Positions 9,482 to 36,195 are shown, counted from the first letter of the stretch. The stretch is 64,000 bases of DNA from Bacteroidia bacterium (GCA_030432405.1 JAUIHG010000001.1:5908-69907); one strand, 5' to 3'. The notes: a model not told the origin generated them from the sequence alone. Made by a program: numbers and translations.

Positions 9482-9492
9482 GGCCTCAAGGC

Positions 9493-10128
9493 ATGTGCAC
9501 GGCTTCTTTTCATTTGGGCATTGACTTTGGCGCCAAGCGCTCCGGCACAACCGCGTTGGTACACAACCGGGAAGACCGGCTCACTGTGTTGCGCTGTGCC
9601 AAAAACGAAGACGCCGATGCCTTTCTGGAACGCTCGGTTGCCGCACTCAGCGGTGGCGAAGCAGCGGCCATCTACATCGATGCACCGCTGAGTTTGCCGC
9701 GGGTGCTGCACGGGCTTTCAGCAGATGGGCCGACGGATGCGCAGGCCGATCCAGCCATGGCCGATTGGTTTTTCCGCGCCGCCGACCGCGCGTTGGGCGC
9801 CATGTCGCCGATGTTTCTGGGCGGGCTGAGTGCCCGGGCCATGAAACTGGCCTGGACCTGGCGGCGGGAGGGCCACACCGTGGTTGAAACCTGGCCGCGC
9901 GGAATGGTCCGGCTGCTGGAACTGGAGGGCTACCGGGCTAAAGACCGCGGCGCGGTGCAGGGCTTTCTGGAACGGCATGCCGCGCTGCTTGGCCTCCCAC
10001 AGCCCTTGCCCGCTTTGCGCGACCAGCACGAATTGGACGCCGTGCTGGCCTGGGCCAGTGGGCTTCGCCACAGGCGGGGCATTGGTAGCGCCTTCGGCGA
10101 ACCCGACGAGGGGCTGATCCACCTTTGA
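9493..10128 (+). CDS. Hypothetical protein, tentatively RNase H-fold / DUF429-like
   Basis: The track ORF starts at TTG 9478, overlapping the cry stop codon; the first ATG is at 9493. Motifs are HLGIDFGAKRSGTTAL near the N-terminus, YIDAPLSLP, and HELDAVLAW near the C-terminus. The family assignment comes from memory of motif patterns only. Confidence 0.55.
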   Translation: MCTASFHLGIDFGAKRSGTTALVHNREDRLTVLRCAKNEDADAFLERSVAALSGGEAAAIYIDAPLSLPRVLHGLSADGPTDAQADPAMADWFFRAADRALGAMSPMFLGGLSARAMKLAWTWRREGHTVVETWPRGMVRLLELEGYRAKDRGAVQGFLERHAALLGLPQPLPALRDQHELDAVLAWASGLRHRRGIGSAFGEPDEGLIHL

Positions 10129-10178
10129 GCCCGCGGGCAACACGGAACAGGCAACCATCCGTGCGGCTCGCGTGTTGC

Positions 10179-11636
10179 ATGGTCATGTCCGAAGCAAGCC
10201 TGGTTTTTCCGCACCAATTGTTCCACCCCCACCCGGCGCTGGACCGCGACCGGCCCGTGTACCTGCTGGAGGACGATTTGTTTTTCGGGCAGTTGGACTT
10301 TCATCCGCTCAAACGCATCCTGCACCGCGCGTCGATGAAAGCCTACCAGGATGAACTGGAGGCCGATGGCTACACAGTGCAGTATGTGGACCATGCGGGT
10401 CTTGGAAAGCTCACGGAATGGATACAGCAACAGGACGTGGACCGCTGGCATTGGAGCGATCCCTGCGACTACCTGCTGGAACGGCGGCTCCAACGTGCCG
10501 CTCCGGATGGCGTGGTGCATCACGGTCGCGGTTTTCTGCTGAACCGGGAAGAAGCCTTGGAGCGGCTCAAGGCCGGCAAGCGTTACCACCAAACGGATTT
10601 TTACCAGCGCCAGCGCAAGCAGTTTAACCTGTTGATGGACGGCGGCGAACCGCTGGGCGGCAAATGGACCTACGACACCGAAAATCGAAAAAAGCTGCCC
10701 AAGGACCTGGAGCCACCTCACCCCTGGATTCCGGGTGCAAACGCCCATACCAAAGCAGCGGTCGAATACGTGGCGAAGACCTGGGGTGCGGATCGCTCTG
10801 TGGGCGACAACTTTCCCTGGCCGGTCACCCGGAAAGACGCGCGCAAGGTTTTGGAAGACTTTGTCGAAAACCGCTTGCACGCCTTTGGCGACTACCAGGA
10901 CGCCCTGGACCCGAACCACCCGTTTGTTTTTCACGGGCTGCTGACGCCAGCGCTGAACATCGGCCTGCTGGAACCCATGGAGGTCATCAAAGCGGCTCTG
11001 GACCGCCACGACGCCGACCCTGTACCCATCAATGCCTTGGAGGGTTTTGTCCGGCAGGTGTTGGGCTGGCGCGAATACCTGCGGGCGGTATACGTGGAGG
11101 AAGGCACCGCGCAGCGCACGCGCAATTTTTGGGGTTTTGAGGAGGGCCTGCCCAAGGCTTTCGCCGAAGGCAAAACGGGTTGGCCTCCGGTGGACGATGT
11201 GCTGCGGAAGGTGGACCGCTACGCCTACGCCCACCACATCGAACGGCTCATGGTGCTGGGCAATGTGCTCCTGTTGACCGAAACGCATCCCGATGCGGTG
11301 TACCGTTTTTTCATGGCGCGGTTTATCGACGCCTACGATTGGGTGATGGTGCCCAACGTCTACGGCATGAGCCAGTACGCCGATGGCGGGCTGATCACCA
11401 CCAAGCCCTACCTGAGCGGTTCCAACTACATCCGCAAACAAAGCCACTACAAAAAAGGCGACTGGTGTGCCGAATGGGATGCCTTGTATTGGCGTTTCAT
11501 TTGGGTGCACCGCGAGGTCTTTGCAGACAATCCACGCATGTCCATGATGGCCCGGATGGTCGAAAAGATGGGCAGCGTAAAGCGAAAAAGCCACCTGGAT
11601 CGGGCCGAGGCCGTACTCGAGCGTTGGCGGAAATAA
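10179..11636 (+). CDS. Cryptochrome/photolyase family protein of the COG3046 (PhrB/CryB-like, prokaryotic 6-4 photolyase-related) type
   Basis: About 485 aa. Motifs include SLVFPHQLF, HQTDFYQRQRK, GGKWTYDTENRKK, LGWREYLRAVY, AYAHHIERLMVLGN and TKPYLSGSNYIRK. The start is uncertain: TTG 10125, ATG 10179 or ATG 10185. Confidence 0.85.
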   Translation: MVMSEASLVFPHQLFHPHPALDRDRPVYLLEDDLFFGQLDFHPLKRILHRASMKAYQDELEADGYTVQYVDHAGLGKLTEWIQQQDVDRWHWSDPCDYLLERRLQRAAPDGVVHHGRGFLLNREEALERLKAGKRYHQTDFYQRQRKQFNLLMDGGEPLGGKWTYDTENRKKLPKDLEPPHPWIPGANAHTKAAVEYVAKTWGADRSVGDNFPWPVTRKDARKVLEDFVENRLHAFGDYQDALDPNHPFVFHGLLTPALNIGLLEPMEVIKAALDRHDADPVPINALEGFVRQVLGWREYLRAVYVEEGTAQRTRNFWGFEEGLPKAFAEGKTGWPPVDDVLRKVDRYAYAHHIERLMVLGNVLLLTETHPDAVYRFFMARFIDAYDWVMVPNVYGMSQYADGGLITTKPYLSGSNYIRKQSHYKKGDWCAEWDALYWRFIWVHREVFADNPRMSMMARMVEKMGSVKRKSHLDRAEAVLERWRK

Positions 11637-18987: not shown

Positions 18988-19851
18988 ATGACCCGTGCTG
19001 CATCCTCCCGAACCGACCGCCCCGTGCAGGCCTGGCTTGCCATTGTGGTGATCCCCGTGGCCCTGGTGGCCGCCTGGGCCATCTACCGCTTCATCCTCGG
19101 CAACCCCGCAAACTTTGTGGGTGGAGATCCGGCAGGCGAACCGCTGACGGGCAATTACCTGGGCGTCATCCACAAAGGCGGTCCGATCGTGATTCTTTTG
19201 ATCGCCTTCCAGGTCATTCTGCTCACCTACGTGGTGGAGCGATTTCTGACCATCCGACAGGCCTGGGGCGGCGGCTCGGTGACCGCCTTTTTGGCGCGCA
19301 TCAAACCGCTCATCGAACAGGGGCAACACGCCAAGGCCCTGGAAGCTTGCGACGCACACCGCGGCTCGGTGGCCAGCGTGGTCCGCAACGGCCTGGCCAC
19401 CTACGGGGAACTGGCCGCGGACCCCGGTAAAACGGAAGACGAAAAAGTGCTGCTGCTCCAACATGATTTGGAAGAGGCCACACAGCTCGAACTGCCGCCG
19501 CTGAACAACAACCTGCCGGTGATTGCGACCCTCGCGCAGATCGCCACGCTCATCGGTCTGCTGGGTACGGTCACCGGGATGATCAAGGCCTTTGCGGCCC
19601 TGGCGCGCGTGGGTTCGCCGGACGCCGTAGGCCTGGCCGGCGGCATCAGCCAGGCGCTGGTGACCACGGCGCTCGGCATCTCCACAGCTGCGGTGGCCAT
19701 TGTCTTCCACAACCTCTTTGCCGGGCGGATCGCCAAGATCACCCACGCCATCGACGAGGCCACTTACGCGGTGCTGCACGCCTTCCAGGTGCGCGATGCC
19801 CGCCAGCGCGCCAACACCAAGGCCGATACCAAAGCCCGACCCAACGCATAG
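18988..19851 (+). CDS. exbB: MotA/TolQ/ExbB proton-channel family protein
   Basis: TM helices plus the conserved IATLAQIATLIGLLGTVTGMIKAF and ISQALVTTALGISTAAVAIVFHN. The start is uncertain: ATG 18988 is preferred, with ATG 18967 and 18901 as alternatives. Confidence 0.85.
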   Translation: MTRAASSRTDRPVQAWLAIVVIPVALVAAWAIYRFILGNPANFVGGDPAGEPLTGNYLGVIHKGGPIVILLIAFQVILLTYVVERFLTIRQAWGGGSVTAFLARIKPLIEQGQHAKALEACDAHRGSVASVVRNGLATYGELAADPGKTEDEKVLLLQHDLEEATQLELPPLNNNLPVIATLAQIATLIGLLGTVTGMIKAFAALARVGSPDAVGLAGGISQALVTTALGISTAAVAIVFHNLFAGRIAKITHAIDEATYAVLHAFQVRDARQRANTKADTKARPNA

Positions 19852-19855
19852 CGCC

Positions 19856-20467
19856 ATGGCCCGCTCCGCACAACACGGCTCACCCGTCCTGGACATGAAC
19901 CCCATGGTGGACCTGGCTTTTCTGCTGGTCACCTTCTTCATGCTCACCACCACCTTCCGGATGCCGGAACCGGTGGCCGTGGCCTTGCCGGCCTCAACGG
20001 CCGAAACCAAGCTGCCGGAGCGGGACGTGATCCAGGTGACCGTGGCTCCCGACGGGCGTGTGTTTCTGGACCTGGACGGCAAGCACGTGCGCGAGCGCCT
20101 GTTGATGCGCGTGGGCCGGTCCACGGGGGTGGCCTTTTCGGCTGGGCAGGCCGAAGCCTTCGCCCTGGCCGGAGGCCATGGCATGCCGCTGGACCAACTG
20201 GGTGCCTGGCTGGCGCTGCCTCCTGCGGAGCGCAAGGAGGTGCCCGCCCCCGGCATTCCGGTGGACAGCCTGCGCAACGAACTGGGCACCTGGATCGTGC
20301 AGGCCCGCGCCGAACACCCCGCCTACCGCGTGGCCATCCGCGCCGACGCCGATGTGCCCTACGCGCGCATCAAGGCCGTGACCGGCACCCTGCTCGAGCG
20401 CGGGGTGACCCGCTTCATCCTCATCACCGAAACCGAGCCGGCACCGGCAACCGGTACCGCATCGTGA
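19856..20467 (+). CDS. exbD: Biopolymer transport protein ExbD/TolR
   Basis: I use the internal ATG at 19856. LDMNPMVDLAFLLVTFFMLTTTF is the ExbD TM signature. AIRADADVPYARIKAVTGTLLERGVTRFILITE is the typical C-terminal region. Confidence 0.85.
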   Translation: MARSAQHGSPVLDMNPMVDLAFLLVTFFMLTTTFRMPEPVAVALPASTAETKLPERDVIQVTVAPDGRVFLDLDGKHVRERLLMRVGRSTGVAFSAGQAEAFALAGGHGMPLDQLGAWLALPPAERKEVPAPGIPVDSLRNELGTWIVQARAEHPAYRVAIRADADVPYARIKAVTGTLLERGVTRFILITETEPAPATGTAS

Positions 20468-21036
20468 AACGCGCGGTGGATGGCAACCGTTTCGCCCGTC
20501 CCGGGCGAACACCCCGGGAGGCCCGCGGGGAACAGCTTCCCGTGTCCATCGACATGAACCCGATGGTGGACCTGGCCTTTCTGCTGCTGACCTTTTTCAT
20601 GCTGGCCTCGTCGTTCAACCAGCCCCAGGCCATGGAGCTGGTCCTGCCGCCGCCGCCCGAACCAGACGAAGCCGTTATGGAACAACCGGTCAAGGAATCC
20701 AAAGCGCTGACCCTGGTGTTGGGTGAGGCCGACCGGCTGTATTGGTACCGCGGCATCACCGAACCCGAGGTGCAGGAAAGCACCTACGGTCCCGCAGGAC
20801 TTGAGCGCCTGCTGCGCGAACAACTGGCGGCCACTCCGGATCTGGTGGTGCTGGTCAAGCCACTCGATGCCTCGCGCTACGCCAACCTGGTGGATGTCCT
20901 GGACGACCTTGGGCGTGCCGCGGCACCCCGTTATGCGCTGACGGAAGCTGGGCCGGAGGATCGGCGCCTGATTGAAGCGCTCGCCCGTTCGGGCGAAAAC
21001 AAAAACGGAGAAATCAACAATCAAGCCGCGCCATGA
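20464..21036 (+). CDS. exbD: Biopolymer transport protein ExbD/TolR (second copy)
   Basis: IDMNPMVDLAFLLLTFFMLASSF, then LVVLVKPLDASRYANLVDVLDDL. The GTG start at 20464 overlaps the previous stop codon, and the start is tentative. Confidence 0.8.
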   Translation: MKRAVDGNRFARPGRTPREARGEQLPVSIDMNPMVDLAFLLLTFFMLASSFNQPQAMELVLPPPPEPDEAVMEQPVKESKALTLVLGEADRLYWYRGITEPEVQESTYGPAGLERLLREQLAATPDLVVLVKPLDASRYANLVDVLDDLGRAAAPRYALTEAGPEDRRLIEALARSGENKNGEINNQAAP

Positions 21037-21857
21037 ACCGCCCCGACACCACAACGGGCTGGCTGGCCACCGTTTATTCGGGGAGAAACCGCGCCTATGG
21101 CGGGTACGCGCTACGGCGCGCTGAGACCCGGTATACGCTGCGGGGGTTGGTGGCTGGTTTGGTGCTGGTGGGCCTGATCTTCGGTGTGCCTTTGGGCCTT
21201 TACCACTGGCAGCAGCGCATGGCCGCCCGCGTACCCGCGGAGCAGGTCCGCGTGGTGACCTACCACCAATTGGCCCCACCGCCGCCCATCGAACGGCGCG
21301 AACCTCCTCCCCCGCCACCGGAGAAGCCGGTACCCAAGGCCAAACTGCGCTATGCGCCACCGGTGGTCAAACCCGACGAGGAGGTGCCCGATGATGAATT
21401 GCCGCCCACGGTCGAAGAATTGGCCCTGCTGGATCCCGGTCCACAGGCCGAACCGGGCGACTCCGTAGTATGGATCGAGGAACCCGTTGCCGTTGTGGAA
21501 CCGGAACCTGCACCTAAACCGGAACCAGACGCACCGATGAAGCCCTTTGTGATTGCCGAGGTCATGCCCGAATTTCCGGGAGGCATCGACGGGCTCTATG
21601 CACACCTGGCCCGCGAAATCCGCTATCCGGTCGTAGCCATGGAAAACGGCATCCAGGGCAAGGTCTTTGTGCGCTTTGTGGTTCAGGTGGATGGGCGCGT
21701 AACGGACGCGGCCGTCCTGCGCGGCATTGGCGGAGGTTGCGATGAAGAAGCCTTGCGCGTCATCCGCGCCCTGCCACGCTGGACGCCCGGGCGTCAGAAC
21801 GACCGTCCGGTACCAGTGGAGTACACGCTGCCGGTGCGGTTTGTGCTCAAGAAATAA
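21033..21857 (+). CDS. tonB: Energy transducer TonB
   Basis: The start overlaps the exbD stop (ATGA). It has an N-terminal TM helix and a Pro-rich spacer (PPPPIERREPPPPPPEKPVPK). The TonB C-terminal domain reads FPGGIDGLYAHLAREIRYPVVAMENGIQGKVFVRFVV...PVEYTLPVRFVLKK. Confidence 0.85.
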   Translation: MNRPDTTTGWLATVYSGRNRAYGGYALRRAETRYTLRGLVAGLVLVGLIFGVPLGLYHWQQRMAARVPAEQVRVVTYHQLAPPPPIERREPPPPPPEKPVPKAKLRYAPPVVKPDEEVPDDELPPTVEELALLDPGPQAEPGDSVVWIEEPVAVVEPEPAPKPEPDAPMKPFVIAEVMPEFPGGIDGLYAHLAREIRYPVVAMENGIQGKVFVRFVVQVDGRVTDAAVLRGIGGGCDEEALRVIRALPRWTPGRQNDRPVPVEYTLPVRFVLKK

Positions 21858-21917
21858 TGCCGGTGCGCTGCAGCGACGAGACGGTCTCTTCGGTGGTGGT
21901 AAAGGACTTCAATTGCT

Positions 21918-22322
21918 TTACCCATTGTTTCCACCGTTCCTAAACGCCTTTCTGGTCATGACCAACGGGATACCGATCAAGACCAAAGCCACCAAGTTGA
22001 TCATGACGACATTGTGCAGGGCATTGTAGTAGATCGAAATGCCGCTATCTATGGCAAACCACGACAGCAGTCCCAACCACATGGCCCGGTATGCCCAGAA
22101 CTCCTTTTTCTCAAAGGCATGCTCGGAGAGCATAACCATAAGCGCATGAAACCCCACGATGGTGCCACCAATCACCCCGAAAAACCAATTCTTGAGTTCC
22201 AACAGCTTGCCTTCAAACTCCTCCCCGTTCAGAAATACCTCCCTGGTATAGCCATTGTGCACTTCAAAGAAGAATGAGTTACCGGCGAACACCCCAACAG
22301 TCCTACGCCGATGGTAAACCAT
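21918..22322 (-). CDS. Hypothetical small membrane protein
   Basis: The track start at 22334 is TTG, so I use ATG 22322. About 3 TM helices (FFGVIGGTIVGFHALMVML, AMWLGLLSWFAIDSGISIYY, VVMINLVALVLIGIPLVM). No family recognised. Confidence 0.45.
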   Translation of the reverse strand: MVYHRRRTVGVFAGNSFFFEVHNGYTREVFLNGEEFEGKLLELKNWFFGVIGGTIVGFHALMVMLSEHAFEKKEFWAYRAMWLGLLSWFAIDSGISIYYNALHNVVMINLVALVLIGIPLVMTRKAFRNGGNNG

Positions 22323-22438
22323 TGGCCCAGTCAATCATCGTTGCCAGAAGTAGAAGTGTTTATCGCCTTCATTCATAACGCTTGGGCTAACCCTTGCTAT
22401 TAACAAGTCTAGGTATTGTTAGCAATCTATCATTCTTC

Positions 22439-22864
22439 TTATTGGATTAATCGCTGTAAATTGATATTCGTTTTTACAGCATTATCAAAGCATGCAGCTT
22501 CATAAAAACGATCATACTTTGGCGTAAACCTCATGAATACCGCCACCATTTTATCCGCCTCATAATTTTCTTTACTGATTAAATAGTTGAAAATATCATC
22601 TCCTATAGTTTCAGTAATCAAATAATACCTAGACACAGATGCTTTTTGAGTCTTTTTATTGAAATGCAGAAGCACCAATTCTTTGCCTATGAGTTCTTCG
22701 GCCTTTTTCGAGACTTTTAATTCATCTCGTTTCTTATATGTCAGCGGGATGTCATGAAAACAGTCGGATAAACTAGCTTCTCCTTGGAATAACTCTTCTT
22801 CAGATTGGGCGTGTGTAGTGCCTGCCAAGAGGGCAATGGCCAAAAGCAATAAAACATTCGTCAT
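22439..22864 (-). CDS. Hypothetical small secreted protein
   Basis: AT-rich ORF. The ATG at 22864 gives signal peptide MTNVLLLLAIALLAGTTHAQ. An alternative ATG lies at 22900. No family recognised. Confidence 0.5.
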   Translation of the reverse strand: MTNVLLLLAIALLAGTTHAQSEEELFQGEASLSDCFHDIPLTYKKRDELKVSKKAEELIGKELVLLHFNKKTQKASVSRYYLITETIGDDIFNYLISKENYEADKMVAVFMRFTPKYDRFYEAACFDNAVKTNINLQRLIQ

Positions 22865-23008
22865 CTCATCAAAGATGCAGTTTATGAGCGTATGGTTCAT
22901 TATGGTTCTTGTATCACTTTCCTGTCCGTCTGAAACGAACGTTGTACAAGACTGTACACTTGGAGACTAGCACTTTACTCCCATAAACTAGATGCATTGC
23001 TAGCCCAA

Positions 23009-23926
23009 TTATTTTTTGTTCTTTTTCATTGATTGTTTTATCAGGCTCAAAATATATTCCATTTCTTCGTCAGTCCGCACTACAATTTCATAGTCCCCAT
23101 TTCCCCAATGTCCCACAGATGAAACATCTCTCGCTAACTCTTTAGGGTCATCAAGGTCACCCTGGTGTAAATTTAGCCACATTTTCAGAGCGTTCTTTTG
23201 AATGTGAATATCAACTACGTTCGATCCTGATACAAAAGCAATGTACTTTTTCTTGGGTTTTATTTCTAAATCGTCAAAGTTCAGTATAGCATTTTTATAA
23301 GTCTCATAAAGCTCTTTTATGCCTTCAGTTCCTTTTTCAAGATGTTCGTCCTCTGTGTAAACTTTAATTTCTTTAGTCACTTTTTCAATCGCTTCATCTT
23401 GTCGGCTGATTGTTTTTACACTTTCCTGAGCTCCTGAGGTCTTTATATGATTATAATTAATTGTCTGATTGTCGTATTTCCTTATTTCCCAAAGTTCAAT
23501 CGGCAGGTCTTTGAAATTGATTGCTTCTTTTTGATAAGTCGTGAATGAAGGCGAAATAAAAATCACTCTAGATTGCGACCAATCTACGTCATTTCTTTTT
23601 AATGTTTCTTTTGAGTTTTCGTTAAACTCAAGTATGAAGTCCGCTTTGTTATTGAGCATCAAGGAAAGGTAAGCGTATCCTTGGTCGATTACGCTAAAGT
23701 TTTTGTCTCGTTTGTATTCGATAATTACAAAAGTCCCTGCGTCTTTGTCGAACGCTAAAGTGTCGATACGAAATGTTTTCAGACTGAATTCCGACTTCAC
23801 TAAGTCAAGTCCGAAAATGGAATTCAGATTTTTCTCTGTCAGAGATTGAATGTCTTTTTCGAGCTTGAAAGGTTGTTCCTTAATGTTCTCAAGTCGCTCG
23901 TTATGTTCTATTTTAAAAAGAGCCAT
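23009..23926 (-). CDS. PD-(D/E)XK nuclease-like protein (NucS/DUF91-type N-terminal core plus a DUF5655/DUF4268-like C-terminal domain)
   Basis: 305-aa AT-rich ORF with an ATG start. The candidate core is FRIDTLAFDKDAGTFVIIEYKRDKN (D55, E70, K72; nt 23711..23764). It is preceded by EKDIQSLTEKNLNSIFG and followed by IDQGYAYLS. The C-terminal KKYIAFVSGSNVVDIHIQKNALKMWLNL...GDYEIVVRTDEEMEYILSLIKQS resembles DUF5655-type domains. All assignments are by motif memory. Confidence 0.65.
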   Translation of the reverse strand: MALFKIEHNERLENIKEQPFKLEKDIQSLTEKNLNSIFGLDLVKSEFSLKTFRIDTLAFDKDAGTFVIIEYKRDKNFSVIDQGYAYLSLMLNNKADFILEFNENSKETLKRNDVDWSQSRVIFISPSFTTYQKEAINFKDLPIELWEIRKYDNQTINYNHIKTSGAQESVKTISRQDEAIEKVTKEIKVYTEDEHLEKGTEGIKELYETYKNAILNFDDLEIKPKKKYIAFVSGSNVVDIHIQKNALKMWLNLHQGDLDDPKELARDVSSVGHWGNGDYEIVVRTDEEMEYILSLIKQSMKKNKK

Positions 23927-24436
23927 TTAATTACTTCGTGTTGTTTTTCTAATGTGGTCCAACCTGTTGGCTAATTGCACCCAGTGGTGTTTAGTCAACT
24001 TGGGTTTGCAGTGGATTGTTTCGCTTTTTCAACCGGCGTCCTACGGATAGCACTCCTATCAGAATGGTCATAAAGTGGCGGTTCTTCGCATCGGACACTT
24101 AAAAATAGGCCCGCAATCGTGCAATGCATAAGGGGCCACTAGCGGTACTATGGCACAAGGCTTGCAGCTGGACGCCGTGCGCGTACGGCATGCCTTTTGC
24201 CGTGAAAAGCAGGTGCTGCTTGTGAAAAATGGGCGCAAACAGCTCGTGGGCACTAAATGCGGGCGCGCAAAGCCCTCTACACACCACACTATAAGGGCTT
24301 TCCGCGTTCGCCGGGTAGGCGCATGTATGAGAAGGACGGGGAGGCGTACTGTAGTACGTGACCGGTTTGATGAGGAGCCGCGAATTCATTGGCCGCTTTC
24401 GCGGAGCGCCAGCGGGCGCGCTAAGTCCTCCACCTG

Positions 24437-26776
24437 CTACTCGCCCAGCGTATACGTCACACGCAGGGTATAACTCCGCGGCGGATCAATGCGGGCGGGG
24501 CGGATGGCGTATTCGCGGTTCATCACGTTTTTGACGATGCCGGCCACGGTCCAGTGGTCGCCGATGTCCACGCCGGCGCGGAGGTCCCAGATCCAGTCGC
24601 CGCCTTCGCTGCGGGCAGCGCGCCATTCGGCTACGCCGGGCAGGAGCACCTCGAAAATCTGGTCGATGGACTCCATATAGGAGTAGTACTGCACGTTGGT
24701 GCCGAGCAGCAGGATGCCGAACTGGATGTCGCCTTCCGCCTTGAAGGTGTGGCGGTTGCGGTAGGTGAGCACGTTCTCGTCGCTGGAGGTCAGCTCGTTG
24801 ATGTCCTCCGTGAAATCCTGGTACTCGGGGTTAGCCCAGGTATAGCCGCCGCTCAGGTTGATCGGGTTGTCCCCGATGCTTCCCCGACCGGCCAGGCCAA
24901 GTTCCAGGCCGTAGATGCGGGTGTCGCCCACGTTGCGGCTTTGGAAGCCCGTGGACGCAACGGTGGGTTGGAAGAACACAAATTCCATCATGTCCTGGTA
25001 TTGCTGGTAGAAGCCCGCCACGTCCAGGAAGGCATCAAAGCTGCCGATCCGCAGGCCCTGCTTGATGCCGATTTCGGCGTTCCAGCCGGTTTCCGAAACC
25101 AGTCCCGGGTTGGGCAGAATGGCCGGATTCAACAAGCCAGGTTCGCCGCCGCCCAGCGCGGTTTGGATGAACTTCTCGGCGATGGTCGGAAAGCGGTAGC
25201 CTTCGCCCCAGGAGGCCCGGATGTAGGTAAACTCGGCCGCCTGATAGTTCGCGCCCGCGCGAAACACCACCTTCTGCTCCGGCTCGGTAAAGGAGATTTT
25301 GTTGGCTTCCAGCCGGGCGCCAAAAGACAGGTTGAGCTTGTCAAAAAAGCGCTTGTCCAGCTGCACGTAGCCCGCAAAGTTGGAGCCATCCAGCGGGTCG
25401 CCCACCTGCTCAAAACGGCCGTCCACACGCACCGAATCCGCGTACAGGTCCGCTTCCACAGTCACGTAACTGGCCACACCGCCGGTGGTAATGCTGAAAT
25501 CCAGGTCCTCCCAGCGGCGCTGGAACTGGTATTCCCCGTAGTAGAATTTGGAGAAGTTGCCCTGCTGATTGGTGTTGTCGTTGTCCACCTGGTTGTAGCG
25601 CACCTGCACCCGGTGCCGGTTGCCGGCCGGGTCAAAATAGGTCACGAAGGGGTCTATGGTCAGACGGAAGCCCTTGGTGACGGTAGGGCGACCGATGGTC
25701 TCCCAAAAGCGGTAAGAATCTGCGCCCAAGCCGTTCCAAAGGAAGAAGTTGCCGCTTTCGCCCACCTGGGTGTTGATGTTCACGCCCAGCGAAAGCCCGT
25801 CCACGCCCGGTACGCGGTAGCGCGTCAACAGGCTGATGCGGCCGCGGTTGTCAAACTCCCCTTCGCGGAAGCTGTTCTGCTTGAAGTAGTAACCGCCCGC
25901 CGTCAGGTCCAGGTTGCCGAACTTCTTGCGGTAGGCCAGGCTAAGGCCGGTTTCGTAGGGCGGCGCGACGGCGCTGTCGGCCCACCAGGCCTTGTTGCGG
26001 CCCAGGCTGTCCACCCCACCGGCCGGGTTGTTGAATACCGTGCCGAAGGTGCTGGCGCTGAAATAGCCCTTGGTCTTCGGCTCCGCCGAACGCAGGTTGA
26101 TGATGCCGTTGATGGCGCTGGAACCGTAGAGCGCCGACGCCGCGCCCTTGATGATTTCCACCTGGCCGATGTTCTCGATCGGCACGGCGCTCCAGTTGGG
26201 AAAGCCCGCGTCGGCCTGAAGGATGGGCATGTCGTTATAGAGCAGCAGCACCCGCGTGCCGGCCCCATAGCTGTAGCCCGCGCCAGCACGGATGTTGACC
26301 TGCCCGTCGATCACGTTCACGCCAGGCACCCGCTCGATGGCGTCGTCGATCTGCACGGCGTTGATCTGTTCGAGTTGCCGCGGCTGGATGACCTCCATGG
26401 AAACGGTTTCCTCCCCCAGCTTCTTTTCAAAGCGCGAGCCCGTCACCACCACCTGGTTCATCAGGCGCGATTCCTCGCGAATGCTGAAGTTGAGGATGCG
26501 CACTTCGCCGGCCTTGAGCTCCAGCACCTCTTCCACCTTTTCATAGCCCACGTAGGTCACACGGACGCTGGCCGTGCCCGGCTCCAGCTCCAGGCGGTAT
26601 TTGCCGTTCAGGTCCGTGGCTGCGCCCGTGCCCGAGTTGCTTTCCAGGATGTTGACGCCGATCAGCGTTTCGCCGGAGGCGGCATCCGTCACCGTACCGC
26701 TGATCACAGCGTTCTGGGCGTAAAGCGCATGCACGCTCATCGCCACGACAAAGAGGGTCGTGCGGAAAAAATTCAT
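24437..26776 (-). CDS. TonB-dependent receptor with an N-terminal carboxypeptidase-regulatory-like domain
   Basis: I use the internal ATG at 26776 (MNFFRTTLFVVAMSVHALYAQ). The CarboxypepD_reg-like segment is ISGTVTDAASGETLIGVNILESNSGTGAATDLNGKYRLEL. The plug reads VVVTGSR...IDDAIERVPGVNV and IIKGAASALYGSSAINGIINL. The beta-barrel ends ...SYTLRVTYTLGE. Confidence 0.9.
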   Translation of the reverse strand: MNFFRTTLFVVAMSVHALYAQNAVISGTVTDAASGETLIGVNILESNSGTGAATDLNGKYRLELEPGTASVRVTYVGYEKVEEVLELKAGEVRILNFSIREESRLMNQVVVTGSRFEKKLGEETVSMEVIQPRQLEQINAVQIDDAIERVPGVNVIDGQVNIRAGAGYSYGAGTRVLLLYNDMPILQADAGFPNWSAVPIENIGQVEIIKGAASALYGSSAINGIINLRSAEPKTKGYFSASTFGTVFNNPAGGVDSLGRNKAWWADSAVAPPYETGLSLAYRKKFGNLDLTAGGYYFKQNSFREGEFDNRGRISLLTRYRVPGVDGLSLGVNINTQVGESGNFFLWNGLGADSYRFWETIGRPTVTKGFRLTIDPFVTYFDPAGNRHRVQVRYNQVDNDNTNQQGNFSKFYYGEYQFQRRWEDLDFSITTGGVASYVTVEADLYADSVRVDGRFEQVGDPLDGSNFAGYVQLDKRFFDKLNLSFGARLEANKISFTEPEQKVVFRAGANYQAAEFTYIRASWGEGYRFPTIAEKFIQTALGGGEPGLLNPAILPNPGLVSETGWNAEIGIKQGLRIGSFDAFLDVAGFYQQYQDMMEFVFFQPTVASTGFQSRNVGDTRIYGLELGLAGRGSIGDNPINLSGGYTWANPEYQDFTEDINELTSSDENVLTYRNRHTFKAEGDIQFGILLLGTNVQYYSYMESIDQIFEVLLPGVAEWRAARSEGGDWIWDLRAGVDIGDHWTVAGIVKNVMNREYAIRPARIDPPRSYTLRVTYTLGE

Positions 26777-27087
26777 GGATGGCGGTTGAAAACCGGATGC
26801 CTCCGGTAGGGACTCGGGCCGCGGCGGTCCCGGTGTTTCCAAGTGGGCCGGGAGCCGCAGCGCTTGCGGGCGTGTGTTGGTGCGCTCCGCGCGAAGGCTC
26901 CACGGATGGAGATGGGGGTGAGAACAGGGGTGGCCGCCTATCTGCGGCCTGTAGTGCGTGTGGGCTAAGATCGGGCAAGCCGGACCGTTGCTCCAAGTCG
27001 GCTTGTCCCCCTTCCACAGGCTGTGCACAGCCGCTTGTGCATCAAGCGCTTAGACCCGCCTGGACGGGGGCCATTATCTTGCTGGTC

Positions 27088-29214
27088 ATGCGCGCTGTTT
27101 CCGGCTGCAGGCGCCTGCAGCGGCCCATCCATTTCCTGTTGTTCTGGGCCCTTTTGGGCCTTTCCGGCCCGCTGTGCAGGGCTGCGGACGCCGAAATGCC
27201 CGGGCACAGCAGCACGGCGGCGGTCGGGGAATGGCGCGCCTCCGGCGAAGGCCAGTGGCACTGGGGTCCACGCAGCCCGCGCAGCGGCTTCTCCGACCGT
27301 TGGGTGCGTTGGCGCCTGCCCCTCCCGGACTCGGGCTTTGCCGCCGGGCCGGGCACAGTGCTGCAAAGCCCCATCGGCCCCGGTGGACGGTCCACCGCCC
27401 AGCAAAGCCCACACGGGCCCGCCGAAGCCGTGCTGGAAATCGGCAACCCCTTTGTGCCGCACATGGCCCTTGCGCTGTACGACGGCAGTGGCCGGCGCAT
27501 CGACTCCCTGCAGCTGTTCGGCAGCGCCGTGGCATCACCCGTGCGGATGCCGCTGCGGACCCTGGGCGGCCCGCTCGAACGCCGCAGCCCCTCCCCGCTT
27601 TACGTGGTGGAACGGCCCGACCCGCTCTACCAATTGCCCATTGCCTGGAACACCGCAACCGGCGGTTGGGTGGACCTCTGGGTCCGCGGCGACGGCAGCA
27701 ACCGCGTATTTCCCGTCACCCTCTGGAGCCCCGAAAGGCTGGAACACCGCCAGGGCGAACGCCTTGGGGTCATGGCCGCTTTTCTGGCCGTTTTGCTGGC
27801 CGTGCTGGTCTTTGGCGGGCTTTTCTCCACCGTGGTCAGCACCGACTTCGGTTGGCCCTACCTGCTCTGGGTGGCCAGCGGCATGGCCTATCTGGTGGCC
27901 GTTTCCGGCCTGGGCTACGCCTACGCCTATCCCCTGCACTACCACTGGCACGTGCTCTTGCCGGTGCTGTTCGGCAACGCCACGGCCTGGTCCCTGCTGC
28001 TGGTGCTGCAGCGCCTCTACCGCACCCAGCCGCTCTACCCCATCCTCCACCGCGTCTTCGAGCTGACGCGGATTTTGCTGCTCGTTTTTGGCCTGGTCAG
28101 CTTCCTGTTGCCCTGGATGGGCACCGGGGCTACGCGAAGCGTCTATTTAGCCCAGGAGGCTTTGTGGCTGGAGGTTTCGGTGTTGGTGTTTATCGCGCCA
28201 TTGGCCTTCGCCGTACGGCGAAAACACCCGGAATCCCCGCTGCTCTTCCTGGCCCTGGGCCCGTTGGCCGTCGGCGTTGGCATGGAGACCCTGGAGAACA
28301 TGGGCCTGGTGCAATGGGCATTCCGCACGCAGGTGTTGCATTGGATTGGTACGGCCAGTGCGGTGCTGCTTACCGCGCCGATCCTGCTGTTCCGCATGCG
28401 GCGCAAAATCGAAGAGGGCTTCCAATGGGAGGGCGCGGCGCTCTTGCGGCGGCGGCTCGATGCGTTTGTGCTGTTTCAACGGGAGGCGCGTCTGCGCGAA
28501 AACCTGCAACAGGCCATCCAGGAACGGCTCGGGCCGCTGATCCGGGAGGTGGAGGAGGGCTTGGAGCGTTTGCAGGGCGGGGCGGGGGCTTCGCCTGCCG
28601 GCGAACCGCCTTTGCCGGCCGAAGGTGCTGGGTTGACGTCCACCGCTGCAGGGCCTTCACCCGGGGGGGCGGCTTTGCCCACCGCGGCGCTGGACCATGC
28701 CCGGGAGCGGCTGGCTTCGGCCAAGGCCGAACTGCGCGTGATTGCCGAAAACCGCCTGCCCACGGACTTGGTGCGCCAGGACCTGGCTCCGGCCTTGGAG
28801 GGCCTCGCCGAACCGCTGCGGGCCGATGGGGTGGTGGTGGACATCGACCTGACGGGCCTGCCCGGCCGCTGGGATCCCGATCCGATCACCCGCATGGCGC
28901 TCTTCCGCACGGCCCAGGGCCTGTTGAGCAATGTGCTGCAGCATGCCCGGGCCCGGCATTGCTGGCTGGAGCTTTCCGGCACCCACCGCGAGCTGGTGCT
29001 ACGGGTGCGCGACGACGGCATCGGGCTGCCTTCGGCCGGCTGGCCGGATGCATACCAAACGGATGGCAACCCGCCCGAACAACCGCTCATGCCCCGCGGC
29101 CGCGGCATGGACATTTTGCGCCAACGGGTTCAGGCCCTTGGCGGCAGCGTGCACTGGACCGGCGCGGCCGGACAGGGCACCGAATGCGTGGTGCACATTC
29201 CCCTTACCCTCTGA
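27088..29214 (+). CDS. 7TMR-DISM-type sensor histidine-kinase-like protein (HisKA_3/HATPase_c) lacking the phospho-accepting His
   Basis: I use the internal ATG at 27088. It has a signal sequence, a periplasmic domain of about 300 aa and 7 TM helices. The DHp-like helix is REARLRENLQQAIQERL, with Gln where His is expected. The HATPase motifs are LSNVLQHA, VRDDGIGL and GRGMDILRQRVQALGG. Confidence 0.8.
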   Translation: MRAVSGCRRLQRPIHFLLFWALLGLSGPLCRAADAEMPGHSSTAAVGEWRASGEGQWHWGPRSPRSGFSDRWVRWRLPLPDSGFAAGPGTVLQSPIGPGGRSTAQQSPHGPAEAVLEIGNPFVPHMALALYDGSGRRIDSLQLFGSAVASPVRMPLRTLGGPLERRSPSPLYVVERPDPLYQLPIAWNTATGGWVDLWVRGDGSNRVFPVTLWSPERLEHRQGERLGVMAAFLAVLLAVLVFGGLFSTVVSTDFGWPYLLWVASGMAYLVAVSGLGYAYAYPLHYHWHVLLPVLFGNATAWSLLLVLQRLYRTQPLYPILHRVFELTRILLLVFGLVSFLLPWMGTGATRSVYLAQEALWLEVSVLVFIAPLAFAVRRKHPESPLLFLALGPLAVGVGMETLENMGLVQWAFRTQVLHWIGTASAVLLTAPILLFRMRRKIEEGFQWEGAALLRRRLDAFVLFQREARLRENLQQAIQERLGPLIREVEEGLERLQGGAGASPAGEPPLPAEGAGLTSTAAGPSPGGAALPTAALDHARERLASAKAELRVIAENRLPTDLVRQDLAPALEGLAEPLRADGVVVDIDLTGLPGRWDPDPITRMALFRTAQGLLSNVLQHARARHCWLELSGTHRELVLRVRDDGIGLPSAGWPDAYQTDGNPPEQPLMPRGRGMDILRQRVQALGGSVHWTGAAGQGTECVVHIPLTL

Positions 29215-29218
29215 TGGC

Positions 29219-31264
29219 ATGAAGGCGATGCGCCATAAATCTCCATCCACGCACCGTGCTGCCGAGCGGAGTCTTCCGGCCAGTAGGGCTGTGCCTGATG
29301 GAATGCGCGGTTGCACCGGATGGCTGGTGGGCTGTCTTTTGGCGTTGGCCTGTCTGAACGCATGGCCCCTTCATGCGCAAACCGCAAAAGGCTCCGGTAC
29401 ACCATCCGCCGACCCGACCACCGATGGCGCGGTCACGGATTGGGGGCTGTTTGTATTTGGCGGACCGCAGACCAAAGGGCAGGGGGCCATGCGGCACATG
29501 GACCTCGGCGCGTGGACCATTCCAAACGCCGATGGCCAGCACCGGCTCCGCCTCCAAATTCAAAACAACAGCCGCGACAGCGTTCTTGTTTTGGTTTTGC
29601 GCAACCCCTACCTGCAACAGCTGGATGCGGTATGGCAAACGGAAGGCGCAAAGCCCTTCCGGCAACAAACCGGCATAACCGGAGGCTTCCGGCAACGGCC
29701 CGTGGCCACGCCCTTGTTGCGCCTGCGCCTGCCCATCCAACCGGGCGCAACGGGAAGCCTGGACCTGCTGCTCGACAACGGAGGCCTGCGCACGCGCAGC
29801 GTGGTCTCCCTGGAAAGTCCTGCGGCCAGCCAACGGGAGCGGCGGCAGCGCACTGCGGTATTGGCGTTCTACTTGTCCGGTGCAGTATTCACCCTCTTGT
29901 TCGGTTTTTTCATTTTGGCTTTTGTCCGGGCCTACATCCGCTTTTCCTACGGTTTCTTTTTTGCGTCGAGTTTGGGACTGGTGGTGGCCAACCAGGGCAT
30001 CGGCTATGCGCTTTTCTGGCCTTCGGCCGAAGGCTGGCAAGCTTCTGCCGAAGGCGTGCTGATGAATGCCGCTCTGCTGGGCGGTTTGCGTTTCATCCAG
30101 CGTTTTCTCAAACCCGAAAAGCACTTCCGCTGGGCCAGTCCGTTCCTGTTGGCGCTCATGCTGGGCCTGGCGCTTTTTGCGAGTTTGTGGCTTTTTGCAC
30201 CCCATTGGGAGGCGGGAGTCCTTGCGCATTTTCAAAACGCCAACGACGCCTTAATCTTGCTCGGACTGTTGGCCATGGCCGTCCTGCCCTGGGTGCTGTT
30301 TGCACATCAAAAGAACTGGGAAGCGCCCGCGCTATGGCTGTCTTATGGCGTGCTGGCCGGTACGGTGGGGCTGGACAAGGCAGCAGCCCTGGGTTTGGGA
30401 CCGGCCGGTGGTTGGGGGCCCGGTCTGGAGCGCGGACTGTGGGCGGGCATGGTGATCCTGCATTTTGGAACAACCGTTCTGGTTTTGCACCGCATGCGGC
30501 GTGTGGTGCTCAACCAGGCCCGGGCCAAAGCCGACCTGGACACCGCCCGCGTGCGCCTGTTGCGGGGCCTGGTTTTGCAGGAGGAAAGCGAGCGCTTGCG
30601 GATCGGTTCGGATTTGCACGACGAGGCCGGATCGCGCTTTGCCGCCCTCAAAATGCAGCTCAGCGGCCTGGCCTACGACCACGGTCAGGGCGCACAGCAG
30701 CAAGGTCTGGAGCAGGTCATTGATTCCGTGGATGCACTCAGCCACGCCAACCGGCAACTGGCCCACCGCATGCTGGCCGTGAGCCTGGACAAACTGGGCC
30801 TGCAGGATGCCTTGCGGGCCTACCGCCAGCGCCTGCTCGGCGAAGGCCGGCACGTGGTCATGATCGTGGAAGAGGCCGCCCTGCAACACACCGACGAAAC
30901 CGCCGAACGCCTGCTCTACCGCATGGTGCAGGAGGTGGTTGAAGGGCTTTTTCCCGATGTGCCGGAGCTGCGGATGCGCATCGAAAACGCGCCCGGCGAC
31001 ACCCCCGGCACGGGTGCATCAGGCGCCTTATCCGGCAACCGCTCCGGCGGCTGGAAGGACGGCGCTTCCCCGGGCCGGGAATGGCTGCTGACGGCCGAAG
31101 CACAGGAAGAGGAGCAACCGTTGCCTTCGCCGGACCGGAAAGGTCCGGCATACCAGGGCCTTGCCGCCCGCGCGGCGCTGTTCAGCAGCCAGCGCGACCA
31201 TGCCATCGCATGGAAAGGAGGCAAACTGCGCATCTGGCTGCCCAAACGGGTGGGACAGGCGTGA
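29219..31264 (+). CDS. 7TMR-DISM-type sensor histidine kinase paralog with an intact HisKA_3 His box but a degenerate ATP-binding domain
   Basis: The ATG at 29219 lies 4 nt after the upstream stop codon. It has a periplasmic domain and 7 TM helices. The H-box is SERLRIGSDLHDEAGSRFAAL. In the C-terminal region YRMVQEVVEGLF I see neither an N-box Asn nor a DxGxG motif. Confidence 0.75.
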   Translation: MKAMRHKSPSTHRAAERSLPASRAVPDGMRGCTGWLVGCLLALACLNAWPLHAQTAKGSGTPSADPTTDGAVTDWGLFVFGGPQTKGQGAMRHMDLGAWTIPNADGQHRLRLQIQNNSRDSVLVLVLRNPYLQQLDAVWQTEGAKPFRQQTGITGGFRQRPVATPLLRLRLPIQPGATGSLDLLLDNGGLRTRSVVSLESPAASQRERRQRTAVLAFYLSGAVFTLLFGFFILAFVRAYIRFSYGFFFASSLGLVVANQGIGYALFWPSAEGWQASAEGVLMNAALLGGLRFIQRFLKPEKHFRWASPFLLALMLGLALFASLWLFAPHWEAGVLAHFQNANDALILLGLLAMAVLPWVLFAHQKNWEAPALWLSYGVLAGTVGLDKAAALGLGPAGGWGPGLERGLWAGMVILHFGTTVLVLHRMRRVVLNQARAKADLDTARVRLLRGLVLQEESERLRIGSDLHDEAGSRFAALKMQLSGLAYDHGQGAQQQGLEQVIDSVDALSHANRQLAHRMLAVSLDKLGLQDALRAYRQRLLGEGRHVVMIVEEAALQHTDETAERLLYRMVQEVVEGLFPDVPELRMRIENAPGDTPGTGASGALSGNRSGGWKDGASPGREWLLTAEAQEEEQPLPSPDRKGPAYQGLAARAALFSSQRDHAIAWKGGKLRIWLPKRVGQA

Positions 31265-35652: not shown

Positions 35653-35970
35653 TTAACGTTTACCCCCTTCTTCGCCCGGTCTGCCGAGCACCCGCACGCG
35701 CTTGACCTTCCGCTTGGGTTTGGTCCTGGCCAGGTGGTGGTTGACCTGCAGGTTCAGCCAGAACTCCGGCGTAGTTCCCAACGCACCCGACAGCATCCAT
35801 GCCTCCGTTGCCGATACCATGCTACGACCCTCCACAATCGACGCTATCCTGTTGGCTGGAAGGTTCAAATGCTTGGCCAAGTCCTTTATTGTCAAAGTCA
35901 AAGGCTCGAGAAATTCGAAAGACAATACTTCTCCTGGGTGTGCCGGGATGCGCTTGGAGTATTGATTCAT
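35653..35970 (-). CDS. higA: HigA-family antitoxin (XRE-type HTH)
   Basis: 105 aa. IPAHPGEVLSFEFLEPLTLTIKDLAKHLNLPANRIASIVEGRSMVSATEAWMLSGALGTTPEFWLNLQ is the canonical HigA/VapI signature. A basic C-terminal tail follows. Confidence 0.85.
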   Translation of the reverse strand: MNQYSKRIPAHPGEVLSFEFLEPLTLTIKDLAKHLNLPANRIASIVEGRSMVSATEAWMLSGALGTTPEFWLNLQVNHHLARTKPKRKVKRVRVLGRPGEEGGKR

Positions 35971-36195
35971 GGATTATCGTAAGAGCTATGAGGTGGATGG
36001 AGTACTTAAGAGCTGCATACTCAGGGATCAGGCCAAAAAAAGCAAGGAATTCGTCATCACTTTTTGAAGCATCAACAAGGAATGCCACAGGGCTAAAAAT
36101 CTGAGTCCAACATTTGAACGTGTACTGAGCTAAAACAGTGAAATTCAAAAGCAATACCGCCATGCAGGTAAAAGCAACTCTTGTCATGGGGGTGT

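Follow-up and report, generated by a model that had tools for sequence, protein, structure and literature searches.

A PDC-S18 candidate nuclease gene in a probable decayed integron-type cassette of a Chitinophagales chromosome

We analysed a stretch of 64,000 nucleotides (nt) from a Bacteroidia bacterium (GCA_030432405.1 JAUIHG010000001.1:5908-69907), hereafter the window, in which a block of low guanine-plus-cytosine (GC) content lies between a TonB gene and a TonB-dependent receptor gene. The composition of the block and an empty site in relatives indicate that it is foreign DNA, horizontally acquired by a high-GC Chitinophagales chromosome. It carries gene C, whose product matches over its full length PDC-S18, a candidate defence family of the PADLOC database. 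We consider it probable that this foreign DNA holds the PDC-S18 nuclease gene in a decayed integron-type cassette and that the nuclease has a restriction-like role. The cassette origin of the window's gene C, taken by itself, is very likely.

The foreign block and its insertion site

The block is the deepest GC dip of the window. In windows of 300 bp the GC content is 0.32-0.42 at about 22,250-24,050, compared with 0.60-0.72 at 19,000-21,900 and 24,200-29,900. Two 1-kb bins in the block fall to 0.42 and 0.36, the next lowest in the 64 kb being 0.51, and in 500-bp windows the block has a mean of 0.369 against 0.618 ± 0.043 outside (z = -5.9). All three profiles bear out the sharp GC drop described in an earlier reading by a model that had the sequence alone (the sequence-only reading), and the three minus-strand open reading frames (ORFs) that it listed are present at 21918-22334, 22439-22900 and 23009-23926; we call them gene A, ORF B and gene C. 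The islet that it drew at 21900-24067 is real, with different limits: the block of low GC and low GC at third codon positions (GC3) covers 22,382-23,963, and the DNA absent from relatives covers 21,858-24,436. Only ORF B and gene C, about 1.6 kb with a GC3 of 0.37, are compositionally foreign; the GC3 is 0.71-0.84 in host genes and 0.69 in gene A.

The receptor protein was used to scan species-representative genomes, and the matches were metagenome-assembled genomes of Chitinophagales/Bacteroidota, of which L014, L016 and L017 are the closest. Their receptor orthologues are 71-72% identical and adjoin TonB, and the gene order is kept (histidine kinase, receptor, then a convergent TonB-ExbD-ExbD-ExbB). 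The gap between the stop codons of the receptor and TonB genes is 24-170 bp in the three relatives and 2,579 bp (21,858-24,436) in the window, and no homologue of A, B or C lies at their TonB/receptor junction. The DNA in the window is therefore an insertion relative to these genomes. The synteny comparison called for in the sequence-only reading thus yields an empty site, which supports the horizontal acquisition proposed there. Since the three relatives are distant, they bound the timing of the insertion only loosely, and they are too far removed for base-level mapping of the junctions. The DNA next to and within the insertion comprises the following flanking features.

21033-21857, plus strand: TonB gene, the left flank, convergent with the receptor gene (ORF list; synteny with L014, L016 and L017)
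24437-26776, minus strand: TonB-dependent receptor gene, the right flank (ORF list; orthologues 71-72% identical in L014, L016 and L017)
23964-24436, no strand: spacer of about 470 bp between the cassette and the receptor gene, GC 0.47-0.64 (near-host)

The spacer has no counterpart in the relatives, and it contains no Rfam match, no recognisable gene, RNA or repeat, and no similarity to any locus compared. Promoter and terminator matches in the islet, spacer included, are at chance level only; the tRNA scan of the islet returned none and the Rfam scan no family. No homologue of tyrosine recombinases was found anywhere in the 64-kb window, and no methyltransferase was found in the inserted DNA by the ORF list, Pfam, NCBIfam or PADLOC. 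Generic repeat finding gave short repeats at chance level, none of them convincing as flanking direct repeats. The sequence-only reading had likewise seen no linked mobility genes, tRNA or convincing flanking repeats in the window. The other GC dips of the window revealed nothing notable. One of them, a mild dip (1-kb bin of 0.51) at 35822-36708 on the minus strand, holds two small ORFs (121 aa with GC3 0.41; 170 aa with GC3 0.60) with no Pfam match and may be another small acquired piece.

Cassette boundaries in the gene C family and in the window

The missing mobility genes would be accounted for by the way in which the C family travels, namely as an integron gene cassette. The homologues of gene C number in the thousands, and an exhaustive search with its protein gave 2,757 cluster representatives (E <= 1e-3). 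Homologues with at least 90% protein identity occur in Flavobacteriaceae, Balneolaceae, Cyclobacterium, Trichodesmium and Calditrichia, in unrelated contexts. At the nucleotide level, the Cyclobacterium, Trichodesmium and Balneolaceae copies are 84-87% identical to that of the window, but only over 960-1,050 bp: beyond gene C itself, the similarity reaches about 35 bp ahead of the gene and at most about 110 bp past it. Alignment of about 70 distinct contexts revealed two 10-nt boxes, reverse complements of each other, that flank the C homologues. The upstream box lies about 30-40 nt before the ATG and has the consensus GTTAGCCCAC, with a GTTRRRY core site; the downstream box is formed by the 10 nt after the stop codon, GTGGGCTAAC. 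The two boxes covary between subfamilies (GTTAGCACAC with GTGTGCTAAC, GTTAGCGGT with ACCGCTAAC, GTTGTGGCG with CGCCACAAC, and GTTGGCATT with AATGCCAAC). They have the form of the core and inverse-core sites of integrons (GTTRRRY and RYYYAAC, respectively; PMC5027507).

At about 15 distinct loci the stop codon is followed by an imperfect palindrome of 127-138 nt whose parts are arranged as R″-L″-variable loop-L′-(5-6 nt)-R′. RNAalifold predicted 12 pairs from 15 of these palindromes, and every one of them (12/12) shows compensatory double changes. A covariance model built from the palindromes gave 96 matches (E <= 0.01) in 591 kb of homologue loci, 95 of the 96 on the strand of the gene, and none in the control loci. 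This model replaced an energy-based attC scanner, which had returned 82 matches in AT-rich loci compared with 9 in shuffled sequences and was non-specific in the GC-rich window (33 matches compared with 11-26 in shuffles, none in the islet).

The placement of attC sites was assessed in 69 non-redundant contexts of C. An attC lies within 40 nt of the stop codon in 26 of 63 contexts, and one ends within 70 nt of the ATG in 16 of 61. Two or more sites are present in 20 of the 69, forming co-oriented arrays with a median spacing of 1,093 bp. For 31 cassettes, mostly of unrelated genes, we then asked whether the 7 nt that follow GTT in the upstream site pair with the 7 nt preceding AAC in the downstream site or with those of the site that the cassette start abuts. 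The cassette starts complement their own downstream R″ at 6.35 of 7 positions and the abutted site at 2.52 of 7 (random 2.50; Wilcoxon p = 1.3e-6). Complementarity to the downstream site only is what crossover at G|TT of a circular cassette predicts. Pairing between the 5' and 3' ends of an mRNA, or terminal repeats of a transposon, were considered and rejected as explanations of the boxes: the same elements flank unrelated genes of the arrays, and the upstream box of each gene pairs with that gene's own downstream element, not with the adjacent one. These results show that the normal vehicle of the C family is an integron-type gene cassette with a GTTRRRY start, an ORF and an attC of about 130 nt.

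The family thus shares with integron cassettes the R″ (…YAAC)-L″-loop-L′-R′ (GTTRRRY) palindrome after the ORF, the arrays, and starts complementary to their own R″, the attC features being those described previously (PMC5027507). It differs from integron attCs in the length of the site (about 130 nt) and in two conserved A·C / G·T mismatches in place of obvious bulged bases. In the loci L046, L047, L078, L079 and L121, two conserved mismatches in the L″/L′ stem read A·C when the top strand is folded and become G·T wobbles on the bottom strand, and the bottom strand of the L046 attC (8923-9053) folds as an uninterrupted 16-bp stem. The G·T/A·C asymmetry could be an alternative marking of the recombining strand in L046-type attCs.

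A 378-aa tyrosine recombinase gene (L066 1036-2172) lies upstream of an attC array and is co-oriented with it. Its product passes the model NF040815 (generic tyrosine recombinase/integron integrase; 226.5 against a cut-off of 220) and fails TIGR02249 (210.5 against 265), and it could be a divergent integron integrase. A fragment 57% identical to this recombinase is found near the gene A homologue in L127. In Cyclobacterium marinum (CP002955, L001), the attC of the C cassette is followed at a distance of about 260 nt by the start of an IS110-family transposase gene (9311-10675); attC sites are the targets of some IS110/IS1111 elements. The copy of Trichodesmium erythraeum IMS101 (L006/L053) keeps the R″ box GTGGGCTAAC, its 5' box is mutated to ATTAGCCAAC, and the covariance model finds no attC. 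To judge by these boxes it is, like that of the window, another fossil cassette outside an array.

In the window, gene C is accompanied by the following cassette features.

23954-23963, minus strand: GTTGGACCAC, the putative box at the 5' boundary of the cassette, some 30 nt ahead of the gene C ATG and at the upper edge of the low-GC block (flank alignments, GC steps)
23009-23926, minus strand: gene C, encoding a predicted 305-aa PD-(D/E)XK nuclease with DUF5655; codons of D55, E70 and K72 at 23711-23764
22879-23008, minus strand: putative decayed attC of the C cassette, with R″ TTGGGCTAGC at 22999-23008 and recognisable L″ and L′ arms
22382-22391, minus strand: box GTTAGCCCAA, the canonical R′ partner of the R″ of the C attC, beyond ORF B and 5 nt short of gene A's original ATG

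The covariance model, run on both strands of the 64 kb, gave a single match at 22879-23005, which is full length and lies directly after the stop codon of C (21.4 bits, E 0.0023). As the model was built from relatives of the window element, this match shows homology and not independent structure. The remnant is homologous in sequence to the attC of L046 and of L001. Its R″ reads GCTAGC and not GCTAAC (AAC to AGC), several stem pairs are broken, 4 nt are deleted where the CGTT of R′ is expected, and the hairpin fold is no longer favoured (z = -0.6). A 54-nt hairpin at 23957-24010 was considered as the preceding attC and rejected, its stability being that of shuffled sequences (z = +0.2). Unlike an integron, then, the window has a single defective attC with R′ deleted. 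With this one match in 64 kb, the window has no co-oriented array, no attI and no intI, and no integrase lies within the 64 kb. In IntegronFinder, attC arrays and single attC sites without an integrase are named CALIN and SALIN, respectively. The sequence-only reading saw no visible mobility; this holds for mobility genes, while the integron-type cassette boundaries and the attC remnant are visible in the DNA.

The box GTTAGCCCAA is the exact partner of the window's R″ TTGGGCTAGC, including a T/A pair specific to the window, and it lies where the low-GC block ends on its lower side, 0.6 kb from R″. The two strands of the window together hold only three matches to it with at most one mismatch, one of which is R″ itself, and the probability that one of them would fall within these 0.6 kb by chance is about 0.02 or less. 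This suggests that ORF B lies inside a split attC, between L′ and R′, or that a second cassette boundary survives.

Several of these results speak against the reading that we favour. About half of the C contexts (33 of 69) have no detectable attC, an integron integrase was demonstrated next to none of the arrays, and in the attCs of the family A·C mismatches, which are G·T when the bottom strand is read, take the place of clearly bulged extrahelical bases. In the window the attC is defective, and the 5' box GTTGGACCAC fits its own R″ at only 4 of 7 positions, the perfect partner GTTAGCCCAA being 0.6 kb off, beyond ORF B. Taken together, the defective attC, the poor fit of the 5' box and the distant perfect partner mean that the local history was not a simple insertion of a single cassette.

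Two courses of events may be set against each other here. In the favoured one, an integron integrase acting in trans would have inserted the cassette, with or without ORF B, outside any integron, into the DNA that separates gene A from the receptor gene. The recombination site of the cassette would then have been lost, leaving the cassette immobile, and the 5' end of gene A would have decayed beside the insertion. The other course is entry without an integron integrase, for example of a donor fragment that carried a dead cassette and arrived by natural transformation followed by illegitimate or short-homology recombination, so that the cassette features would be fossils of the donor. Such entry would agree with the missing R′ and mutated R″ of the window, the position of ORF B between L′ and the displaced R′-like box, the lack of an integrase in the window, and the half of C contexts in which no attC is detected. 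It would also agree with the absence from the relatives of the roughly 470 bp of near-host GC and of the disrupted gene A, which points to more than one event. However, both low-GC edges coincide with cassette-type GTT boxes (23963-23954 and 22391-22382), the lower of these is the exact canonical partner of R″ and would arise by chance with the low probability given above, and the defects are explained no less well by decay that followed insertion by an integrase. We regard entry without an integrase as a possibility to be taken seriously, albeit a rather unlikely one.

Protein C, its relatives and its predicted role

Protein C matches the PADLOC profile PDLC04945 (PDC-S18) with an E value of 2.7e-141 and 468 bits, its residues 1-300 aligning to positions 1-301 of 302, and a second PADLOC profile, PDLC04946, with an E value of 4e-65. 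By this match it is a full-length member of the candidate family PDC-S18, where the sequence-only reading had found no named defence system assignable; the family is itself a computational candidate. Pfam detects DUF5655 on residues 193-301 (48 bits, cut-off 24) and, on the N-terminal half, weak HSDR_N_2 and NucS_C similarity only. The C-terminal domain had been proposed as DUF5655/DUF4268-like, and the first part of that proposal is confirmed, DUF4268 being unsupported by Pfam. In 43 homologues that are 33-56% identical to C, the residues E23, Q27, D55, E70, K72, Q82, Y86 and W116 are invariant. Protein C thereby contains the conserved D…(D/E)xK core motif (D55, E70 and K72, plus E23, Q82 and Y86), the codons of which had been placed correctly in the sequence-only reading. 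Its E…D…ExK…QxxxY arrangement is what we take to be the residue set and motif order of RecB/NucS-like PD-(D/E)XK nucleases.

An AlphaFold2 (AF2) model of protein C computed from an alignment of diverse homologues reached a predicted local distance difference test score (pLDDT) of 93.8 and a predicted template modelling score (pTM) of 0.86; it was used in place of a model from a shallow alignment (80-94% identity), which had a pLDDT of 68.5. In a Foldseek search of this model against the PDB, NucS/EndoMS was the best match (E 4e-5, probability 1.0), followed by SfsA, the Shedu nuclease domain, R2 restriction-like domains and restriction enzymes, and the C-terminal half scored with YjbR, SPO1766 and RPA0323. 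Sequence searches of the PDB with two alignments of C detected no solved structure. The model indicates a single polypeptide with an N-terminal NucS/HsdR-like PD-(D/E)XK domain and a C-terminal DUF5655 of YjbR/DUF1801-like fold. The ratio of nonsynonymous to synonymous substitution rates (Ka/Ks) between C and the copies in other phyla is 0.04-0.06, so protein C is under strong constraint. With the invariant D55/E70/K72, the NucS-like fold and DUF5655, the nuclease call of the sequence-only reading is well founded, and we predict with high confidence that protein C is a metal-dependent DNA nuclease.

Viral PD-(D/E)XK and RecB-family proteins also match the model in the fold search. One of them, gp54 of Bacillus phage G (BFVD G3MBC4), has the same length and matches the whole model (Foldseek E 1.8e-13, 15% identity), which means that the two-domain architecture of C also exists in phages. 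A scan of viral contigs found no close relative of C.

The PDC systems are 145 single- or multi-gene candidates taken from genes embedded in BREX, DISARM and type I restriction-modification (R-M) systems, and their authors describe the set as untested (10.1101/2024.01.29.577857). The PDC candidates that have been tested (PMC12881386) do not include S18. Membership in an untested candidate family therefore says nothing yet on the activity of protein C. Distant members of the family that are encoded on plasmids (28-53% identical) were found in or beside type I R-M operons in all three contexts inspected (3/3).

L128 4185-10820, Acinetobacter baumannii plasmid: hsdM-hsdS-DUF5655-hsdR, the family gene being tightly embedded between hsdS and hsdR
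L129 1-5903, Staphylococcus nepalensis plasmid: hsdR-S-M-S-DUF5655
L130 1-5894, Rhizobium plasmid: DUF5655 family gene divergent from hsdM-S-R

Protein C thus resembles PDC-S18 of Payne et al. (10.1101/2024.01.29.577857) in its full-length hidden Markov model match and in having relatives embedded in type I R-M. The window copy differs in that it has no R-M, BREX or DISARM neighbour and lies in a probable decayed integron cassette; its neighbours are TonB, ORFs A and B, and the TonB-dependent receptor. It differs from classical R-M in the absence of a cognate methyltransferase beside the nuclease.

The DUF5655 domain alone (residues 190-302 of C, 31-35% identity) also occurs at the C-terminus of plasmid-encoded proteins annotated as DUF262 or DUF262+DUF1524. 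For a protein of Deinococcus gobiensis plasmid P4 (L131 2207-5062), Pfam confirms the combination GmrSD_N, GmrSD_C and DUF5655. The plasmid matches H36, H39 and H41-H43 also carry a C-terminal DUF5655 on GmrSD-type (DUF262/DUF1524) enzymes. DUF5655 is therefore a module common to two unrelated kinds of stand-alone nuclease, one of them the GmrSD family of type IV (modification-dependent) restriction enzymes. Besides this domain, protein C has in common with GmrSD that it is a single polypeptide with no methyltransferase; unlike it, C has a PD-(D/E)XK domain, whereas the catalytic module of GmrSD consists of DUF262 (ParB-like) and a DUF1524 nuclease domain. DUF5655 may be a sensor-like domain common to C and GmrSD; a reading of it as a sensor of modification is unsupported.

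Another defence context comes from an attC array in a Balneolaceae metagenome-assembled genome (L009 4701-9019, GCA_040876105.1), in which three consecutive attC-bounded segments hold an XhoI-type restriction enzyme with an Eco57I-like methyltransferase, a 209-aa HI_0787_N-like gene, and a C homologue, respectively. The array is rich in defence genes and adjoins Ku/LigD. That integron cassettes can carry genes for phage defence has been described before (10.1101/2024.07.02.601719). The R-M-embedded relatives, the fusion of DUF5655 to GmrSD and the array beside an XhoI-type R-M pair are the grounds for proposing a defence role for C, and we hold the case for an anti-phage or anti-plasmid role to be evenly balanced. 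Protein C would act on invading DNA as a methyltransferase-independent, restriction-like, metal-dependent DNA endonuclease, with DUF5655 as its substrate-selecting module. A single-protein defence on a NucS-like PD-(D/E)XK nuclease has a parallel in Shedu (SduA, DUF4263), with which C shows a weak fold match (8ti9, E 0.04). The accessory domain of Shedu and its position differ from those of C, and no Shedu/DUF4263 profile of PADLOC or Pfam matches protein C.

Protein C might instead be an accessory or repair nuclease, either a helper of type I R-M or a NucS-like enzyme specific for structures or mismatches, and not an autonomous effector. The weak HSDR_N_2 similarity and the tight embedding between hsdS and hsdR in Acinetobacter plasmids point this way, and so does the best structural match, which is to the C-terminal RecB-like domain of NucS/EndoMS (PDB 2vld, 5gke) and covers C residues of about 20-160. 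But C lacks the N-terminal DNA-binding/dimerisation domain of NucS, NucS has no DUF5655, and the NCBIfam models of NucS score far below their cut-offs (NF003270, 16.4 bits against 216; NF002876, 15.5 bits against 252). Moreover, most copies, including that of the window, have no R-M neighbour, DUF5655 is also fused to the stand-alone GmrSD enzymes, and the spread of the gene by itself, as a cassette, is an argument for a self-sufficient function. An accessory or repair role is thus unlikely in our view.

The solitary spread at 90% or more amino-acid identity across phyla and the invariant catalytic motif would also suit a selfish nuclease of the addiction or homing type, which promotes its own cassette and not the benefit of the host. 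Against this, no context contains an antitoxin or immunity partner, and the attC sites, which serve unrelated neighbouring cassettes equally, fully account for mobility. The Ka/Ks of 0.04-0.06 also persists in copies with a decayed attC, such as that of Trichodesmium, and constraint that outlasts the attC implies selection on C at the level of the host. We therefore consider a selfish nuclease quite improbable.

The restriction-like role in the favoured reading has its own points to contend with. No R-M or other defence gene adjoins the window copy, where promoter-like matches are at chance level. The name PDC-S18 appears in no paper text or supplement of the literature searched, and the PDC set is untested. 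Structural relatives in phages, such as gp54 of Bacillus phage G, mean that the C family is not exclusive to hosts.

ORF B, gene A and the significance of the cassette

The other two ORFs of the insertion are as follows.

22439-22864, minus strand: ORF B, a near-orphan whose product has 141 aa (153 aa with a start at 22900) and a predicted signal peptide; GC3 0.37
21918-22376, minus strand: gene A, a disrupted copy of a gene for a conserved Bacteroidota membrane protein of about 150 aa, intact from about 22289

The most likely start of ORF B is the ATG at 22864, since the 36 nt that only the 153-aa version includes overlap with the remnant of the attC, and the length of 141 aa given in the sequence-only reading thus stands. 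From M13 onwards (MTNVLLLLAIALLAGTTHAQ…) the protein reads as a signal peptide by inspection. It has no match in Pfam, NCBIfam, PADLOC or PHROG and only three homologues in 5.8 billion proteins, one of which is its own source record, the others being 61-64% identical. The homologue in the contig L012, which has 30% GC, has different neighbours and no attC. For this reason, and as no covariance-model match follows B, we rejected ORF B as a second canonical cassette. A 40-nt GCTAAC…GTTAGC hairpin was rejected as the attC of B because it is too short and weakly stable (z = -2.3).

Gene A was called as an ORF of 21918-22334 and described in the sequence-only reading as a 134-aa membrane protein with three helices; this description has to be revised, as the gene is a 5'-disrupted copy of a longer family of about 320 homologues. 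In a tblastn search, residues 1-148 of a homologue align to 22376-21936. The original start MNEGDKHFYFWQR is at 22376, an in-frame TGA follows at 22335-22337, and three-frame translation shows that the reading frame shifts along the first transmembrane segment. The similarity to the family sets in again at FAGNSFFF, and the remaining codons, about 120, are intact and 61-70% identical to full-length members, with a host-like GC3 of 0.69. The lesions cluster beside the foreign block. Truncation of gene A by the insertion was rejected, its original ATG and N-terminus still being present though disrupted, and gene A was also rejected as a cassette, as its homologue locus L127 has no attC.

The sequence-only reading took the three ORFs as one acquired cassette, and they might indeed form a multi-gene defence system working together: they are adjacent, on the same strand and all absent from the three relatives. 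However, they never co-occur in the loci sampled, which is an outcome that the sequence-only reading had itself named as refuting. Not one of 97 loci that contain a C homologue carries a homologue of A or B, and in two loci with a B homologue and one with an A homologue the other two genes are absent. In addition, GC3 sets A (0.69) apart from B and C (0.37), A is broken by a stop codon and frameshifts, B has its mere three homologues database-wide, and the attC remnant separates C from B. A three-gene system is thus highly improbable, and ORF B and gene A are bystanders, not partners of C.

It was already known that PDC-S18 is catalogued as a candidate family and that integron cassettes carry defence genes. 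The literature searched holds no record of PDC-S18/DUF5655 nucleases as common integron cassettes across phyla, nor of DUF5655 shared with GmrSD, the term 'DUF5655' occurring in a single unrelated paper. A broader picture, which we offer tentatively and consider rather unlikely to hold in all its parts, is that PDC-S18 proteins are self-sufficient, methyltransferase-independent restriction nucleases with DUF5655 as a portable sensor. They would travel mainly as an integron cassette across phyla (Bacteroidota, Balneolaceae, Cyanobacteria and Calditrichia), with G·T/A·C marking of the attC strand, and the window would hold a decayed non-integron insertion.

The instance in the window is a fossil cassette and otherwise ordinary. 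Its meaning lies in the family: a gene of about 1 kb that has no linked mobility gene and yet shows about 90% protein identity across phyla would be explained by an integron cassette moved by integrases in trans. For annotation, an isolated low-GC gene in a Bacteroidota chromosome may be traced to a cassette by its GTTRRRY / …AAC boxes despite decay of the attC. PDC-S18 itself gains three independent lines of context, namely relatives embedded in type I R-M operons, a sensor-like domain that it has in common with GmrSD type IV restriction enzymes, and carriage in an attC array beside an R-M pair, and these make it a well-motivated target for phage-challenge and nuclease assays.

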